Positions 381 to 7,344 of a DNA stretch of 64,000 nt are shown here, piece after piece. Position numbers and translations under genes: made by a program. The first letter of the stretch is position 1; each line of letters begins with the position of its first letter. The notes under the pieces are model-generated. The model was not told where the DNA came from, did no database searches, and saw only the letters and a list, made by a program, of their open reading frames with translations. The stretch is from contig JBOGEV010000118.1 in assembly GCA_050742015.1 (NCBI GenBank), positions 3,962 to 67,961 on the forward strand, in the 5' to 3' direction. The DNA comes from Acidimicrobiia bacterium. Its GTDB lineage: Bacteria; Actinomycetota; Acidimicrobiia; Spongiisociales; ZC4RG35.

Positions 381-998
381 GTGAATGAAATCCCAAAGGC
401 CACGGTGGTCAGGCTCCCCCGGTACCTCCGTCTGCTGGAGGACCTGGACTCATCCCGGGATGTGATCAGCTCCGAGGAACTGGCGGTGGCGGCCGGGGCC
501 AACGCAGCGAACGTTCGACGCGACCTCTCTCACCTCGACTTCCACGGGGTCCGTGGCATCGGGTACTCGGTTGGCGAGCTGATGGCCCGGATCCGCCAGG
601 AGCTCGGCATCGCCGAAAGGAGGCGGGTTGCCATCGTCGGAGCCGGCAACCTGGGCCGAGCCCTGGCCAACTACGGAGGGCTGGGACGACGCGGATTCGA
701 TGTAGTCGCCCTTTACGACACCGACGTCCGAAAAGTGGGCTCCAAGGTCGGAAGTGTCACCATCCAGCACCTCGACGTCCTCGACGGTGACTCTCGTTCC
801 GACCTCTTCGAGATCGCCATCCTGGCCGTGCCTGCCGTCGCCGCCCAGCAGGTCGCCGACCGTCTGGTCGAGCACGGGATCCGTTCCATCCTCAACTTCG
901 CCCCGGTCCGGGTCAAGGTTCCCGAAACGGTCTCCGTTCGCCAGGTCGACCTCTCGATGGAGCTACAGGTGTTGAGCTACTACGGCTCCCGTCTTTGA
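381..998 (+). CDS. rex: Redox-sensing transcriptional repressor Rex
   Basis: 205 aa with a GTG start. N-terminal IPKATVVRLPRYLRLL DNA-binding block and VAIVGAGNLGRALANY Rossmann NAD(H) site. Confidence 0.9.
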   Translation: MNEIPKATVVRLPRYLRLLEDLDSSRDVISSEELAVAAGANAANVRRDLSHLDFHGVRGIGYSVGELMARIRQELGIAERRRVAIVGAGNLGRALANYGGLGRRGFDVVALYDTDVRKVGSKVGSVTIQHLDVLDGDSRSDLFEIAILAVPAVAAQQVADRLVEHGIRSILNFAPVRVKVPETVSVRQVDLSMELQVLSYYGSRL

Positions 999-1173: not shown

Positions 1174-1545
1174 CTAAGCCGAGGACTTCTCTTGTACCTC
1201 TTCGTATTGGTGGAGGGCGACCAGGAAAGCCAGGAACAGGACCAGGGAGACCAACAAATAGGTGATCGGGATGATCCGGATTTCCAAGGCGTTGAGACCC
1301 TCGATGTCGTCGGGCTTGGGGCCACGAGGGGCATAGACCACGAACAGCATCGAGGTGATCGTCAGCCAGCCAAACACCGCCGACCCGGTCACCAGAAAAC
1401 CAAGCCTCTTGCCCAAATTGGTCCAGTTGAACAGGTAGATCGAGCCGTAGAACAACAACACCGCGCCCAGGGTCAAGATGATCCCGGTGACGAAGAGGTT
1501 GGCCGAAAACAACGACCGGAAGAACTCACGGAAGAACACTGACAC
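1174..1545 (-). CDS. Small polytopic membrane protein, last gene of the Rieske/cytochrome b operon
   Basis: 123 aa with 3-4 hydrophobic spans. Overlaps the upstream cytochrome c gene by 20 nt. No family recognised. Confidence 0.55.
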   Translation of the reverse strand: MSVFFREFFRSLFSANLFVTGIILTLGAVLLFYGSIYLFNWTNLGKRLGFLVTGSAVFGWLTITSMLFVVYAPRGPKPDDIEGLNALEIRIIPITYLLVSLVLFLAFLVALHQYEEVQEKSSA

Positions 1546-3448
1546 CCTCCTTCCCGTCCATGTTTCCGGCCCTCAAGAACCGGGCCAACAACTTGATGTC
1601 CTCCACGGCGAGACTTGGACCGAAAGCAGGCATCCGGCCGGAGCCGAATCCGTTAAGACCGTACGGGGTCTCAGCCTCCGAGCCTCGGATCAGGAATTGG
1701 AGCAGGAGGTCGTCCTCGGGGTTCTCGGTGGCATCGCCGAACTGAACGGTGGGCCGGCCGTCCCACAGGGCGGGACCGAAGCCGCCCGAGCCCGCCTCCT
1801 GGGTGTAGGGGACACCGGCACTGAATCCCGCGGTGTGACAACGAGCACAGTTGGAGTTGAAGAGGCCGACAGCCCGCTCCGCCTCCTCGACCGAAGACCC
1901 CATGGCCTCGGCCACGCCATCGAAGTCGATGGAGTACAGCTGGGCCTCGAGTGACTCCTCGAGGAAGTCGAGACCGGCGCCTTCGGTGTCCAGAAGCGTC
2001 TTCTGGTTGTCGGTCGCCACGGTGAGCTGGGAGGCCAAACCCTCCAGGCTCCCGACGAAGGCGCTGGCGGTGGCGGCGTCCGGCTCGCCTCCGACCGAGG
2101 CCGGGTTGGTCGGGTCGAGGCTGATCAGGGTGATCTCGGAGGGTGTGGTGGCCGTGATCGCCGCCCCGACCTGGGTCGTGATGTCGTTCTCGGCAGCGGT
2201 GGAGAGCCCGTCCCCGTCGGGATCGGAGCCGCCCTCGATGGCGGCCGTCGTGGTGGCGAGCAACTCGGTGGCCGCTTCGATCGGTTCCTCAGCTGTCGTC
2301 GCCGCCTCCAGGGCAGCGGCCAGCTCGTTGGCTCCGTCCAGGTCTTCGACGACGCCCGGGACCTCGATCCCCGCCGCCTCAGCGGCGGCACGGGTCTCCT
2401 CGATCTCGGTCAGAGCAGCGGTGCTGAGCCCCACGGCCGGGTCGACGGAGCCGGCCTCGATGGCCGCCTCGACCGCAGCCACGTTGTTGAGGACGATGGG
2501 ATCGGTCTCCGAGGCGGTCTGGAGGGCGGCCAGCGCCTCATCGGCCAGCTCGGCATCCGGTGTCTCCGGGTCGAGGGTCACCGGCTCCATGATGCGGAAC
2601 CCGTCCACGGCCTCCTGGGAGATGGCGCTGAGCTCGGTCTCGGCGGCATCGGAAAGGCCGTCGGCATCGGTGTCCAGCCCGGTGCCCGCTCCGTCGAGAG
2701 CCTGGCGCGAGGCGGTCGCCAACGGCACCAGGAGGTCGGCGTCGGCCGGCGCCGATTCGATGTCGGCGACTACCTGGCTCTGGGTCAGGATGGCGGCTTC
2801 CACGGTGGCGTCGGCACCTTCCAGCGTGCCCAGGGCAGCGCTTATGCCGGGCTCCACCTCTCCCAACGCCTCGGGTTGGGAGATCTGGATCGTCTTCAAA
2901 TAGTTGACGACGTCGACCACCTGCTCCTCGTTGAGAGGCCCGCCACCGGGGACCCCCCAGGCCGGCATCGGGGTGTTGCCCCGCCCGTAGGTGACCCAGA
3001 AATTGACCTCGTCCTCGTCGTACCGGAAGAAGACATCGTTGAGGGAGGGTGCCGCCCAGCTCACGGTCACGCCCGACCGCTTCTCGACATAGGGGGCAAC
3101 CCCACCCGAGCCCTCGGGGCCATGGCAGGAGAAGCAGGCGAACTCCTCCACGATGTGGTCGCCGCGCGCAATGGAACCCGCGGCGAACTCGTCGACGAAG
3201 CCCTGCTGTCGGGCGGGCTCGGTGAGGAAGTACAAAGGGAGGGATATGGCGAGAAAGGCGGAGAACGCAATGGCCGCCTTTTGCCCGCCCTCGAGGCGGC
3301 GGGTCTCGATCTGTTCGTCGTCGATCCCGGGTCGGAGGTTGAGCGACACCTCCTCGCCACCACGGTTGCGGATGGCCGACACGAAGAGCATGCCCAGCCA
3401 GGCGATGCCGGCAACGACGGCGATGACCGTGATGATGCCGGCGGTCAT
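1526..3448 (-). CDS. Membrane-anchored dihaem c-type cytochrome (QcrC-like) with a long acidic insert between the haem domains
   Basis: 640 aa. Two CxxCH motifs (CFSCH aa105-109, CARCH aa534-538) and N-terminal TM helices. ATGA overlap with the Rieske gene at 3445-3448. Confidence 0.8.
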   Translation of the reverse strand: MTAGIITVIAVVAGIAWLGMLFVSAIRNRGGEEVSLNLRPGIDDEQIETRRLEGGQKAAIAFSAFLAISLPLYFLTEPARQQGFVDEFAAGSIARGDHIVEEFACFSCHGPEGSGGVAPYVEKRSGVTVSWAAPSLNDVFFRYDEDEVNFWVTYGRGNTPMPAWGVPGGGPLNEEQVVDVVNYLKTIQISQPEALGEVEPGISAALGTLEGADATVEAAILTQSQVVADIESAPADADLLVPLATASRQALDGAGTGLDTDADGLSDAAETELSAISQEAVDGFRIMEPVTLDPETPDAELADEALAALQTASETDPIVLNNVAAVEAAIEAGSVDPAVGLSTAALTEIEETRAAAEAAGIEVPGVVEDLDGANELAAALEAATTAEEPIEAATELLATTTAAIEGGSDPDGDGLSTAAENDITTQVGAAITATTPSEITLISLDPTNPASVGGEPDAATASAFVGSLEGLASQLTVATDNQKTLLDTEGAGLDFLEESLEAQLYSIDFDGVAEAMGSSVEEAERAVGLFNSNCARCHTAGFSAGVPYTQEAGSGGFGPALWDGRPTVQFGDATENPEDDLLLQFLIRGSEAETPYGLNGFGSGRMPAFGPSLAVEDIKLLARFLRAGNMDGKEGVSVLP

Positions 3449-4335
3449 GCCTCAGCCACAGCGCTGATGCAGCTCGGCCCCTGGGGGTACTCGACACTTG
3501 GCGCGGGTGCCCGGGGCGTTTCGATGATATCCCCGGTCCTGATGAAGAAATTGCCCCCGCGGTTCTCCACGACGAACCGATCGAGGTTGCGTGGCGCGGG
3601 CCCGCCGAAGTACTCACCGGCGGCGTTGTACCTCGAGCCATGGCAGGGGCACTCGAAGCCCTGGGACGGTGCGCACCACGGGACCCGGCACCCGAGATGG
3701 ACACAACGCATGTAGAGCGCCATGAGACCGTCGGTGGCCACGCTCTTGCCCTCGAACTGCTCGGACAGTTCTTGCGGAGCGGGGACCAGGTAGGCCCGGG
3801 CCTCGGGGATGAACAGTGGCAGCACCCCCCCGGTCGATGTGAACACTTGTGAGCGGAGATCGGCAACGGGCCCGGCATCGATATCGGCGCCGAAACCTCC
3901 GGTCAGCTTGGGCCAGAAGAAGGCGAGGTAGTAGAGACCTTGGGCGGCGAGAAAAGTGCCGAAGGTGGCAGTGATGGCCCGATTGAAGAACTGGCGCCGG
4001 CTCACCCCACCCTCCTCGGGCGACACCTCGACTATCCGTTGCTCCTCGATGATCTGGACGCCGGCTCCGGCCCCATTCGCCTCGACCGGCACCGGCTCGA
4101 GCTCCTCAGGCTCGGCCACCTCCTCGACCTCGGGCTCGGCCACGGTCACGACCCGGGGAGGGATGGTCACGGTCCGGGCCGACCTGTCGGCGACTCTGGT
4201 CTCCTCGGTCACCCCAGCGAAGGGATCGGGTTTCTCGGCGGTTTGGGACCGGCGATAGGCGACCGCGAACGCCCCGGCCGCCCCGAGGATCGCCACCACG
4301 GCGACGGCAATCAGGGCGGCGTTGGTCAAGGTCAT
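3445..4335 (-). CDS. Rieske [2Fe-2S] subunit of a cytochrome bc-type complex
   Basis: 296 aa. CVHLGC...CPCHGS Rieske boxes and an N-terminal TM anchor. ATGA overlaps at both ends. Confidence 0.9.
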   Translation of the reverse strand: MTLTNAALIAVAVVAILGAAGAFAVAYRRSQTAEKPDPFAGVTEETRVADRSARTVTIPPRVVTVAEPEVEEVAEPEELEPVPVEANGAGAGVQIIEEQRIVEVSPEEGGVSRRQFFNRAITATFGTFLAAQGLYYLAFFWPKLTGGFGADIDAGPVADLRSQVFTSTGGVLPLFIPEARAYLVPAPQELSEQFEGKSVATDGLMALYMRCVHLGCRVPWCAPSQGFECPCHGSRYNAAGEYFGGPAPRNLDRFVVENRGGNFFIRTGDIIETPRAPAPSVEYPQGPSCISAVAEA

Positions 4336-5495
4336 TCGAACTGCACCCAGTCCTTGAGGTCGTCGAAGAAGACTCCGTCCTGCCAGGGGTAGGAGAAGTT
4401 GAAGCCGAGACCGCGGAACAGCACGCCGAAGATGGTGAGCGTGGCCGCCCCAGCGAGGAACACCGAATAGAGGGCGATGGCGAACTTGCGGTCACTGGGC
4501 CTGGTCGATGGGTTCTTGTCGACGTAGGGCACCAAGAAGAACCCGATGATCCCGGTGACGGTCGGGATCATCACCCCGGCGATCTGAGGGTCGAAGTAGG
4601 ACAGCAGCTCCTGCAGACCGAGGAAGTACCACGGCGCCTTCGACGGGTTGGGAGTGGCGTTGAAGTTGGCCGGATCGAGCAACGGGGAGTGGATGATCAC
4701 CGACAGGATCACCAGGAATCCGGTGATGGCCAGGAGCGCCCCGAACTCCATCAGCATCAGGTGGGGCCAGGTGTTGACCTTGTCCGTGGGCTCCGCTTTG
4801 ACAGCCTGGATCGCCCTGGCCTTGACCACGGTGAGCAGACGCTGGGAGCGCACCCCTTCCGGTGTCCCCTTCGGCGGGACGGTGGGACGGGGGCTGACCA
4901 AAGCCGCCACCTTGCCATTGCCGGCGCCATCGCCCTCCGGAGCGGGGCGATCCTCGACTGCGGTGGCCACGGACGCGGCGGCGGGCTCGGCCGTGGTCGC
5001 GGCCGCTATCTCCTCGGCGGGGGGAGTTCCCCCAGGCTCACCGGGGGCCGCGGGTTCGGCCGCAGGCTCGGCCGCTGGCTCCTCTGTGGCCGACTCCGGC
5101 GGGGACACGGCTTGTTCACTGTCTTCCACCGGCGGCGCTTCGGTGGGCGGGGCAGGGGAAACCTCGGCTTCAGTCTCGGCCTCCACCTCGGGCTCGGCGT
5201 CGGCGGCGTCATCGACCGGGGCCTCTTCCACCGGCTCCGGCTCGTCTTCGACCGACTCGATTGCCTCTTCGATCTCCTCGGAGCGCTCGGCGGCCTCCTC
5301 CATCTCCTCGGCCACGGTCTCTTCAGAGGCCGCCGCGGACTCGGCCTCGCCAGCCGGCTCCGGTTCGGCCGACGGGGGCGGAGTGGGCGGTGCCTCGCCT
5401 TTCATCTCGGCCAGGACCTGCTCAACGGGCAGCCCCAACGCCTTGGCCTTGGCCTCAGCCGACCTTCTGAGAAGACTCTCTGGGATTTCGGTCAT
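4332..5495 (-). CDS. Cytochrome b C-terminal half / subunit IV-type protein with a long acidic N-terminal extension
   Basis: 387 aa. The C-terminal 3-TM region carries NPSKAPWYFLGLQELL (PEWY-type Qo motif region). The N-terminus carries the shared RSA..A.A...G..V..VL module plus a Glu/Ala/Pro-rich linker. Confidence 0.85.
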   Translation of the reverse strand: MTEIPESLLRRSAEAKAKALGLPVEQVLAEMKGEAPPTPPPSAEPEPAGEAESAAASEETVAEEMEEAAERSEEIEEAIESVEDEPEPVEEAPVDDAADAEPEVEAETEAEVSPAPPTEAPPVEDSEQAVSPPESATEEPAAEPAAEPAAPGEPGGTPPAEEIAAATTAEPAAASVATAVEDRPAPEGDGAGNGKVAALVSPRPTVPPKGTPEGVRSQRLLTVVKARAIQAVKAEPTDKVNTWPHLMLMEFGALLAITGFLVILSVIIHSPLLDPANFNATPNPSKAPWYFLGLQELLSYFDPQIAGVMIPTVTGIIGFFLVPYVDKNPSTRPSDRKFAIALYSVFLAGAATLTIFGVLFRGLGFNFSYPWQDGVFFDDLKDWVQFE

Positions 5496-5504
5496 AACGA
5501 CTCC

Positions 5505-6281
5505 TTAGAGCGGCCCGGATATCCCGCCATCCTTGCGCACCCGCCAGAAATGGACGGCGAGGAAGAGCACGAGGATGAACGGCAACGCCAGCACGTGCAG
5601 GACATAGAAGCGGAGCAGGGTGGCGCCGGAGACCTCCACTCCGGCGAGGAGGGCGAACTTGACCTGGCTGCCGACGACGGGGACGAAGCCGGCCATGTTG
5701 GTTCCGACCGTCACCGCCCACAGCGCAAGCTGGTCCCAGGGGAGGAGATATCCGGAGAAAGAGAGGAGCAGGGTCAGGAACAGGAGCACCACGCCGACCA
5801 CCCAGTTGAACTCCCGGGGCGGCTTGTACGCGCCGTGATAGAAGACCCGGCTCATGTGCAGGAACACCGAGAGCACCATCAGATGGGCCCCCCATCGGTG
5901 CATGTTCCGTACCAGAGACCCGAAGGCAACGTTGGTGGACAGAGCCTCGATGTCCGCATAGGCCGTCTCCGCCGACGGCGTGTAATAGAACATGAGGAAG
6001 ATCCCGGTGATGGTCAGCAGGATGAACAGGAAGAAGCTGAGCCCACCCAGACACAGGGTGTAGGAGAGCCTGACCCCGTGCCGCTTTACCTTCACCGGGT
6101 GGAGGTGATAGAGCACGTTGTTCATCACCACATACGACCGGTTCCTCGGGCTGTCCGAGTAACCCTTCTTGAAGGGCGAGCCGGGACGCAGGATCGATTC
6201 CGCGACCTGCGAGCCCCAGAGTTTCTCGTTGGCCTCTTTGATTCTGTCCTTGAGTCCGGTCTTACCGTTGCCGTTGGCCAA
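5505..6281 (-). CDS. Cytochrome b6-type protein (N-terminal, haem-binding half of cytochrome b)
   Basis: 258 aa, 4 TM. Conserved His pairs in [12 protein letters not shown] and [22 protein letters not shown]. Stops where b6-type proteins stop. Confidence 0.9.
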
Positions 6282-6289
6282 ACCGCCTC

Positions 6290-6739
6290 CTACCAGCGCA
6301 TTCCATAGGCGTATCCATTCTTGAAGTCACGTTGCCCGGTGTCGAGATCCCACGGGCGCCGATCGAGGCCGAGCTCGGCGGCCTGGTCGGCCAGTGAGCC
6401 CTCGAACTTGCCCAGGGTGATGACATTGGTCGGGCAGCGGTCGACGCAGAGAGCACATCTGGTGCACTCGTCTTCGTCGACAACGAAGAAACCAAGGTTC
6501 TGAGGGTCGTCCCCCGGGTGGTCGACGTTGACCCCTTCGGTGATGGCATCCAGAGACAGGTAGTGGATGCACTTCCAGGGGCAGATGTCGACACAACCCT
6601 CACACAGGATGCACTCCGACTGGTCGATGTGGAGGAACTGCTTCGGGCGCAGTTTGTCGGTGAAGTAGTCACCTTCGACCACCGCCAACTGGTAGTCATC
6701 GCGGTACGGAGGGGTCTCGTCGACGACACCCTTGGGCAT
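6290..6739 (-). CDS. 2x[4Fe-4S] ferredoxin-domain protein encoded inside the bc operon
   Basis: Internal ATG of track ORF 6290..7297 at 6739; 149 aa. Motifs [12 protein letters not shown] and [16 protein letters not shown] overlap with the upstream gene's stop, and 8 nt upstream of the b6 gene. Confidence 0.85.
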
Positions 6740-7344
6740 CAGCCTTCTCCCCTCACCAATGGCCGCCCGTATGGCGACCTCACTTCGGGCTTCTCCGCCG
6801 ACGGCGGCGGCCCCTGTCTGATCTTCTGCAACTGGATGGTGAACACCGCGGCCGCAACCAGCATCACGATGTGATATCCCATCGAGATGGAGTCCTTGAT
6901 GGCGGCCCAGCTGAGCTGGACATCGTTGCCCAACACCAAGAACGGCGGGATGGCGACGGCCACCCTCTGCGACGACCAGTCGAGATCGGTCTGAGCGAAG
7001 TTGAGCCATTCCGAGGGAACCATCCCGAAGATGAGGACCAGCTCGATCCAGGTGATGAAAGAGGCGAACAGGGCCCGAGCCCAGGTCATCTTCAGGTTGA
7101 GCACCCAGACGAAAAGGGCGCCGACGACCAGCATCTGGGAAGCGGCGAACACCACGAGGTAGCCGAGGCCCTTGAGGATGTGACCTCTCGGGATCCAGTC
7201 GAAGAAGCCGGCATCCTGCTCCGGAGGGAGACTGGTGAAGTGGATCCAGATCACCCCGACGACCAGAGCGAGAAAGCCGAGCCCGAGCAACCCCCATCCG
7301 ATGCTCTTGCGTCTGCTGTCACTCAGTTCTGCCAGGCGGTACAT
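6739..7344 (-). CDS. Polytopic membrane protein, first gene of the bc operon (family not recognised)
   Basis: 201 aa with about 5 hydrophobic spans. Translationally coupled (ATGA) to the ferredoxin gene. Confidence 0.55.
   Translation of the reverse strand: MYRLAELSDSRRKSIGWGLLGLGFLALVVGVIWIHFTSLPPEQDAGFFDWIPRGHILKGLGYLVVFAASQMLVVGALFVWVLNLKMTWARALFASFITWIELVLIFGMVPSEWLNFAQTDLDWSSQRVAVAIPPFLVLGNDVQLSWAAIKDSISMGYHIVMLVAAAVFTIQLQKIRQGPPPSAEKPEVRSPYGRPLVRGEG

Follow-up and report, generated by a model that had tools for sequence, protein, structure and literature searches.

A predicted dicluster ferredoxin encoded within the complex III operon of Acidimicrobiia: a probable electron port or partner on the cytoplasmic side

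Our analysis of a 64,000-nucleotide stretch of an Acidimicrobiia genome (assembly GCA_050742015.1, contig JBOGEV010000118.1; hereafter the window) concerns a small ferredoxin-like protein, Fdx, whose gene lies inside the operon for complex III, the respiratory Rieske/cytochrome b complex. Fdx has the ligands for two [4Fe-4S] clusters, is cytoplasmic in character as judged from its sequence, is inherited together with the b6-type cytochrome b of the complex, and is homologous to a module that in related genomes is fused to a GltD-like protein and encoded next to a paralogous b6. We propose that Fdx probably serves complex III as an electron port or partner on the cytoplasmic side. In the specific form that we favor, with a probability of roughly 0.5, Fdx would be a dedicated two-[4Fe-4S] protein of complex III that docks on the cytoplasmic side (n-side) and wires the low-potential haems or the Qn site to the cytoplasm.

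Rieske/cytochrome b complexes are usually seen as two-port enzymes, with quinol entering and cytochrome c leaving. If our proposal is correct, an iron–sulfur (FeS) protein on the cytoplasmic face would constitute a third port on a main respiratory complex, and this port would span a large, mostly uncultured bacterial group, including Acidimicrobiia with genomes of about 1 Mb. Such a system would offer a genetically fixed model for the debated exchange between haem cn and ferredoxin in b6f-type complexes, and would connect ordinary aerobic complexes with the NAD(P)-linked ones proposed for anammox bacteria. Should Fdx instead prove to diffuse freely or to act in assembly, no more than an annotation note would remain.

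A Ferredoxin with Two Predicted Clusters and Extensions

The gene in question is the following:

6290-6739, minus strand: Fdx, ferredoxin-like protein of 149 amino acids (aa) with two predicted [4Fe-4S] sites (open reading frame [ORF], Pfam and orthologue alignment)

A preliminary description of this DNA had reported a 149-aa product with two CxxCxxCxxxCP motifs and neither a signal peptide nor a transmembrane helix, and we confirm these points. The frame encodes the described protein, and its motifs at residues 43-54 (window 6578-6613) and 92-103 (window 6431-6466) supply the eight cysteine ligands of a dicluster fold. Pfam Fer4 matches at E=6.6e-13 (48.3 bits; cut-off 21.1), Fer4_21 at 42.6 bits (cut-off 35) and Fer4_7 at 35.8 bits (cut-off 27); besides Fer4, eight models of the Fer4 clan exceed their cut-offs, and all Pfam matches belong to this clan. 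We found 1791 homologues, those with names stemming from Acidimicrobiia metagenome-assembled genomes. In an alignment of 75 sequences, with identity down to 26%, 8/8 cluster cysteines are invariant, as are Y16, V21, P54, W55, R94, R101 and P103. Given the number of homologues and the invariance of all eight cysteines, the motif pair is no chance pattern, and the alignment indicates that Fdx is under purifying selection. Clustered at 50%, the family is small: of 1.84 billion proteins, 18 representatives reach E<=1e-30.

The peak Kyte-Doolittle mean over 19 residues is 1.03 for Fdx, compared with 2.3-2.7 for the neighboring membrane proteins, and neither a signal peptide nor a membrane helix was detected in the sequence, nor a twin-arginine motif at the N-terminus. 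The protein is strongly acidic (isoelectric point [pI] 4.4, charge -14), with a pI of 4.2-5.1 across all 31 orthologues. Free dicluster ferredoxins comprise 55-80 aa. Fdx, in contrast, has an N-terminal extension of about 40 aa, an insert of about 37 residues between the cluster motifs, and a C-terminal tail ending in GYAYGMRW. The N-terminal extension (DY..VD..WL..VKPK) is recognizable phylum-wide, and the tail, ending in GYAYGMR(F/W), is specific to Acidimicrobiia.

The top profile and PDB matches of Fdx are complex-bound dicluster subunits (NuoI, FwdF, MvhB, RnfB and PsaC), all with scores far under the family cut-offs. Fdx does not belong to the NuoI/NdhI family, scoring 43.9 bits on TIGR01971 against an NCBIfam cut-off of 113, and the PDB search showed no chain of this kind in a solved bc1 or b6f structure. 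The term "soluble-type" in the preliminary description is a label rather than a finding, as the best matches are subunits bound to complexes.

The Gene Lies between Two Membrane-Subunit Genes

Fdx is the second of seven genes on the minus strand, in the order M201-Fdx-b6-SUIV-Rieske-dihaem c-M123, which is conserved throughout the class and in further, non-Actinomycetes classes. The other six are:

6739-7344, minus strand: M201, membrane protein of 201 aa that opens the operon and has four hydrophobic segments (hydropathy)
5505-6281, minus strand: cytochrome b6, 258 aa, TTG start, both histidine pairs, haem-cn cysteine (Cys77, in TLCLGG) and an N-terminal extension that is basic and about 45 aa long (Pfam Cytochrome_B, 1.1e-47)
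4332-5495, minus strand: SUIV, 387-aa protein resembling subunit IV, its N-terminal region long and acidic, with an APWY Qo motif (Pfam Cytochrom_B_C and synteny)
3445-4335, minus strand: Rieske [2Fe-2S] protein, 296 aa, with an internal SRRQFF motif of twin-arginine translocation (Tat) type after an N-terminal helix (ORF and profile matches)
1526-3448, minus strand: dihaem cytochrome c of 640 aa, containing a long insert of acidic character (ORF and Pfam)
1174-1545, minus strand: M123, membrane protein of 123 aa that closes the operon and has three hydrophobic segments (hydropathy)

All overlaps or gaps in this series measure at most 9 nucleotides (nt). Between the genes no terminators were detected beyond chance expectation, and a terminator-like hairpin follows M123 at 1186-1171. 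At the M201/Fdx junction (cTGATGcc) the stop codon TGA (6741-6739) and the start codon ATG (6739-6737) share 1 nt. The overlap with the upstream membrane gene had been described correctly, but its sequence reads TGATG and not "ATGA"; TGATG is the usual junction in close relatives (80 public loci). A GGAG lies 7-10 nt 5' of the Fdx ATG, and the orthologues share the same first residue; a longer open frame of 335 aa at this locus was rejected as a high-GC artefact overlapping M201. The stop codon TAG (6292-6290) is overlapped by an AGGAGG (6291-6286) and followed, after the gap of 8 nt noted previously, by the TTG start of b6 at 6281. The best explanation for this arrangement is joint transcription and translation of Fdx and the membrane subunits. 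Because b6 is the sole match to PF00033 in its genome (98% complete), the operon encodes the organism's only complex III; an aa3-type oxidase is encoded elsewhere in the genome. A gene for a Rex-type redox-sensing repressor (window 381-998, plus strand) converges on the 3' end of the operon.

Fdx Is Inherited with Cytochrome b6

Co-occurrence of the ferredoxin gene with b6 and SUIV genes across genomes, which the preliminary description had named as a check, is strongly supported, with Fdx and b6 adjacent in 18/19, 80/80 and 14/14 loci in three sets. The first set comes from different families of the class, among them genomes of about 1 Mb, and 18 of its 19 loci have Fdx directly upstream of b6. 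The 80 public-genome loci, in all of which b6 comes after Fdx, were chosen by ferredoxin similarity; a homologue of M201 precedes Fdx in 79 of these 80. One public metagenome-assembled genome with Pfam labels has the same gene set, its 128-aa M201-like gene overlapping the Fdx start by 4 nt. The third set was sampled in other (non-Actinomycetes) classes, where the order is Fdx-b6-SUIV-Rieske-cytochrome c as far as the contigs extend, two of them ending at b6. Across these 14 loci identity drops to 31-40% for Fdx and holds at 66-73% for b6. Within the class, Fdx is 48-62% identical, which places it beside the SUIV core, behind b6 (72-78%) but ahead of Rieske, cytochrome c and M201.

Gene content gives the same picture. 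In a class sample of 151 genomes, with the orthologous b6 set at a best E below about 1e-120, Fdx is present in 134/151 and orthologous b6 in 138/151. The difference of four genomes is made up of two in which b6 lies at a contig start (G146, G172) and two real losses (G130, G090); the remaining Fdx-negative genomes either lack cytochrome b, have only paralogous or QcrB-like forms of it, or, in G181, contain a truncated b6. In a phylum sample of 301 genomes, 123 contain both genes, 7 contain b6 only, 170 contain neither, and a single fragmented assembly contains Fdx only (1). The tallies of Fdx and b6 are identical in every family named in the outputs for these genomes, with 20/20, 17/21, 11/12, 8/10, 18/21 and 16/16 as examples of families having both, and in four families without orthologous b6 (f51, f52, f53 and f59) Fdx was found in 0/22, 0/9, 0/20 and 0/8 genomes. 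Fdx is thus encoded and inherited with the core subunits of the complex, the exceptions being five operons without the gene. Two genomes of family f9, in the window's order and about 95% complete (G152, G163), have neither Fdx nor a b6-type cytochrome b, so that some members of this family may have lost the complex altogether.

A Homologous Module Is Fused to a GltD-Like Protein

Relatives, among them those represented by L032, L125 and L126, carry a paralogous operon encoding a GltD-like fusion, b6, SUIV, Rieske and dihaem c:

L032:5154-9681: paralogous operon, found also in L125 and L126

The fusion is a 694-aa open frame directly before the paralogous b6 and consists of Fer4_20, Pyr_redox_2 and a C-terminal dicluster domain. 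This last domain is 37-48% identical to residues 35-123 of Fdx and has the same long insert between the clusters; the C-terminus of the L032 fusion aligns with Fdx residues 36-114 at 37% identity (E=6e-16), and the equivalents in L125 and L126 are 45-48% identical. Judged by this homology, Fdx is the counterpart of the b6-proximal, two-cluster half of an NAD(P)H/FAD/FeS arm, standing alone. The three b6 paralogues examined beside the fusion lack the haem-cn cysteine, with SWYLGV in place of CLGG, and no homologues of M201 or M123 were detected in the L032-type paralogous operon. In its architecture, this operon is anammox-like within aerobic-type Actinomycetota.

The anammox bacterium Kuenenia has two NAD(P)-linked Rieske/cytochrome b complexes with such a subunit (PMC12954380, PMC5600118), and NAD(P)-binding FeS proteins are recorded as occurring together with such cytochromes b (PMC5600118). 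AlphaFold3 models of the anammox complexes place the NAD(P) oxidoreductase subunit on the n-side, where a modeled chain of four FeS clusters leads from haem bn/cn to FAD in steps of 15-20 Å or less (PMC12954380). The complexes of Kuenenia stuttgartiensis (Kuste4569-4574, Kustd1480-1485) share with the one described here a b6-type four-helix cytochrome b together with SUIV and Rieske, an additional, presumably cytoplasmic FeS protein whose gene lies within the operon (a likeness of architecture), and a proposed [4Fe-4S] chain from haem bn/cn to the cytoplasm. Unlike the anammox subunit, Fdx is only a two-cluster module of 149 aa, lacking Fer4_20 and any FAD or NAD(P) domain, and the chain it would serve is aerobic and has a common dihaem cytochrome c instead of multihaem or HAO-like proteins. 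In addition, the Fdx-linked b6 keeps the haem-cn cysteine, whereas the actinobacterial GltD-linked paralogue does not. The parallel with anammox bacteria drawn in the preliminary description is therefore apt at the level of architecture: the Fdx module has the position of the C-terminal dicluster module adjacent to b6 in the anammox-type subunit, and is found in fused form before b6 in relatives. It does not extend to membership of that subunit family, since Fdx has only Fer4-clan matches and no NAD(P)/FAD module.

A Possible Role on the Cytoplasmic Face of Complex III

How might a two-cluster protein serve a quinol-oxidizing complex? Fdx would most likely dock at the cytoplasmic (n-side) face of b6 and SUIV, near haems bn and cn. 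Its two clusters could then form a short wire connecting the low-potential haem chain or the Qn site with a cytoplasmic redox partner, electrons being either put into menaquinone or drawn from the low-potential chain. Physical binding, electron exchange with the haems, the direction of flow, the potentials of the clusters and any bifurcation are features that we infer. Potentials of -360 and -220 mV lie close to the usual range of [4Fe-4S] clusters. Haems bP and bN of Rieske/cytochrome b complexes from Firmicutes have potentials as low as these two values, respectively (PMC12954380). The genome of this aerobe also encodes a ferredoxin-using enzyme, 2-oxoacid:ferredoxin oxidoreductase (POR_N). 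The suggestion made earlier, of an n-side electron input or output, is partly supported, with co-inheritance and the fused module in its favor; the operons without Fdx, and the lack of an NAD(P)/FAD module in Fdx, limit this support.

The b6 N-terminal extension is a candidate docking surface on the n-side, as far as its sequence indicates. It is common to the orthologues, occurs in an altered form in the GltD-linked paralogue, and is absent from plant b6 and ExtP, judged by where the NCBIfam models start aligning. Residues 1-73 of b6 carry a charge of +8.8, and the contrast between this clade-specific extension and the acidic Fdx (pI 4.4) is suggestive only. The extension (window 6062-6281, minus strand) is conserved as ..SI(L/F)RPGS..(K/R)GY.D..R.R.. 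among the b6 proteins. A three-helix N-terminal "handle" of SUIV was provisionally set aside as a docking site for Fdx: a similar handle-like motif is present in the Fdx-less operon of G130, which suggests that the handle is independent of Fdx.

We consider it improbable that complex III acts here as a three-port bifurcating enzyme, in which menaquinol would deliver one electron to cytochrome c and the low-potential one, via bn/cn and the clusters, to a ferredoxin-level reductant. In reverse, such an enzyme would act as a ferredoxin:quinone reductase at haem cn, an activity long postulated for b6f.

Operons without the Ferredoxin and Other Points against a Docked Partner

Several observations weigh against a dedicated, docked subunit, foremost among them five otherwise syntenic operons in which M201 lies directly before b6 and Fdx is missing:

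L030:7602-9125: Fdx-less locus
L131:6750-8015: Fdx-less locus
L132:5969-7223: Fdx-less locus
L133:6370-7519: Fdx-less locus
L135:514-1968: Fdx-less locus

They belong to G130 (L030), G090 (L135, from the window's order), and G335, G395 and G371 of family f84 in another class, of which a further member, G359, retains Fdx. This distribution implies that the gene was deleted independently three times or more. In the four Fdx-less operons checked (G130 and the three of f84), b6 retains both the haem-cn cysteine and its N-terminal extension. Because a few lineages have deleted the gene yet kept the operon, Fdx is accessory, and the complex works without it. The preliminary description had stated that absence of the gene from syntenic operons of close relatives would speak against its proposal; such absence occurs in a minority, these five operons, and most operons retain Fdx.

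Further points concern the strength of the genomic association. The co-occurrence counts are inflated by shared ancestry, and a single ancient insertion could underlie them. Apparent M201-Fdx and Fdx-b6 fusions (P0286, P0290, P0293, P0298, P0340 and P0344) proved to be frameshifted read-throughs with out-of-frame stretches in error-prone assemblies, and being artefacts of this kind they provide no Rosetta-stone support. Two AlphaFold2 runs on Fdx gave unusable models, with mean confidence scores (pLDDT) of 37.5 from 28 sequences and 49.5 from 75 sequences. Finally, as a small, acidic, soluble protein, Fdx resembles a free carrier.

Alternative Explanations

The main rival to a docked partner is a free, diffusible ferredoxin that shares the message of complex III while serving as a carrier for another pathway or as a transient partner. 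The properties just named, a small acidic protein with no membrane segment, fit this explanation, as do the clean deletion of the gene from operons otherwise left intact and the failure to predict a structure or interface. Yet free dicluster ferredoxins have no counterpart to the N-terminal extension, the long insert and the C-terminal tail of Fdx, and its nearest relatives are all complex-bound subunits. The gene has also kept its place between two membrane-subunit genes, with overlapping stop and start codons, at phylum depth, and Fdx was not found in the lineages without this b6 (f51, f52, f53 and f59). We therefore regard a free carrier as unlikely, if still the most serious competitor. 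Less likely again is a bound but structural subunit, whose relic clusters would lie off the catalytic path and which would stabilize the n-side of the dimer. Dispensability in a few lineages would fit such a role, as would the lack of an enzyme partner for Fdx among the ORFs of the window. The eight ligands and the flanking proline, tryptophan and arginine residues are invariant down to 26% identity, however, which is not expected of redox-inert clusters.

A role in biogenesis or regulation, with Fdx acting either as the reductant when haem cn is bound covalently to Cys77 at the cytoplasmic face or as a redox or oxygen sensor, is in our view about as doubtful as that of a structural relic. Every b6 adjoining a stand-alone Fdx has kept the haem-cn cysteine (CxGG; T[LFY]CLGG), whereas the b6 beside the GltD-fused paralogue of Fdx lacks it; the uncharacterized membrane proteins M201 and M123 travel with the operon; and insertion of haem cn in such bacteria "remains a mystery" (PMC5600118). 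On the other hand, the Fdx-less operons retain the CxGG cysteine, which weakens a role in haem-cn attachment, and the same module is evidently an electron wire in the GltD fusion. To our knowledge, b6 complexes of the Bacillus type carry haem ci without an Fdx-like gene, which also counts against this explanation. By far the least probable alternative places Fdx on the periplasmic (p) side, exported in folded form by piggy-backing on the Tat-dependent Rieske protein. The SRRQFF motif of Rieske would provide the route, but Fdx itself lacks a signal peptide, whereas each of the known p-side FeS subunits has a Tat signal, and in the GltD fusion the homologous module is joined to an NAD(P)H/FAD domain that is cytoplasmic.

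Comparison with Other Rieske/Cytochrome b Systems

A docked Fdx can be compared with the cyclic electron flow of b6f complexes with ferredoxin and ferredoxin-NADP reductase. The b6 of the window is 45-50% alignable to plant b6 and has the same histidine ligands and haem-cn cysteine; in end-to-end alignments (spinach 6RQF; 1Q90) Cys77 falls on Cys35, and all four haem histidines are matched. Haem cn of b6f faces the n-side and has long been proposed as an acceptor of electrons from ferredoxin (reviewed in PMC5600118), an idea that our proposal shares. The ferredoxin of b6f is, however, a free [2Fe-2S] protein whose gene lies apart from those of the complex, whereas here a predicted 2x[4Fe-4S] protein is encoded within the operon of a non-photosynthetic menaquinol oxidase. 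The b6c complexes of Bacillota and Heliobacteria (QcrABC and PetCBDA) share the split cytochrome b, the haem-ci cysteine and the use of menaquinol in Gram-positive lineages, and the b6 of the window scores 211 bits on the NCBIfam "cytochrome b6" subfamily model, but it has in addition the basic N-terminal extension. We know of no ferredoxin and no M201- or M123-type genes in the operons for b6c complexes.

Among dicluster subunits of other complexes, PsaC, NuoI/NdhI, FwdF/MvhB and RnfB share with Fdx the 2x[4Fe-4S] fold as well as insertions and terminal extensions, which in those subunits have a docking role. Fdx differs in scoring far below their family cut-offs and in its partner complex, which would be a Rieske/cytochrome b complex. 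That 4Fe-4S domains can be joined physically to a bc-type cytochrome b is illustrated by the "PDWF-FeS clade", in which FeS domains are fused to the cytochrome (Kao & Hunte 2014, PMC4122944). Those proteins are single-polypeptide fusions from other clades and contexts, whereas here the genes are separate and the cytochrome b is of the split "APWY" type. Split "APWY" cytochromes b have been noted in Rubrobacteridae and Ilumatobacter, with no ferredoxin mentioned (PMC4122944). In the accessible literature we found no description of the small stand-alone ferredoxin, although the large NAD(P)-binding FeS partner is described.

The b6 of the window also resembles ExtP of Geobacter, scoring 302 bits on the ExtP equivalog model (NCBIfam NF040969; cut-off 290). 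SUIV, in contrast, reaches only 50 bits on the ExtQ model (NF040970; cut-off 150), and the operon is that of an aerobic complex III with a ferredoxin. The name ExtP ("selenite/tellurite reduction operon cytochrome") would be a misannotation for this b6, and automatic annotation may misname it so.

The Remaining Subunits

Searches of Pfam, NCBIfam and PDB with M201 and M123 matched no family even at E=10. M201 was rejected as an anchor of haem b because it lacks a conserved histidine. Homologues of M123 were detected at the end of most of the sampled operons of the class and in some of other classes. Both proteins travel with the CxGG-bearing b6 even where Fdx has been lost, and were not detected in the operon of the paralogue without the cysteine. 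Possible roles for them are as additional subunits of the complex or as candidate components of the system that attaches haem cn in non-phototrophs.

In the Rieske protein, an acidic linker of about 85 aa separates the N-terminal helix from the internal SRRQFF motif, after which comes a second helix. This layout suggests dual Sec/Tat insertion, which has reportedly been described for actinobacterial Rieske proteins.

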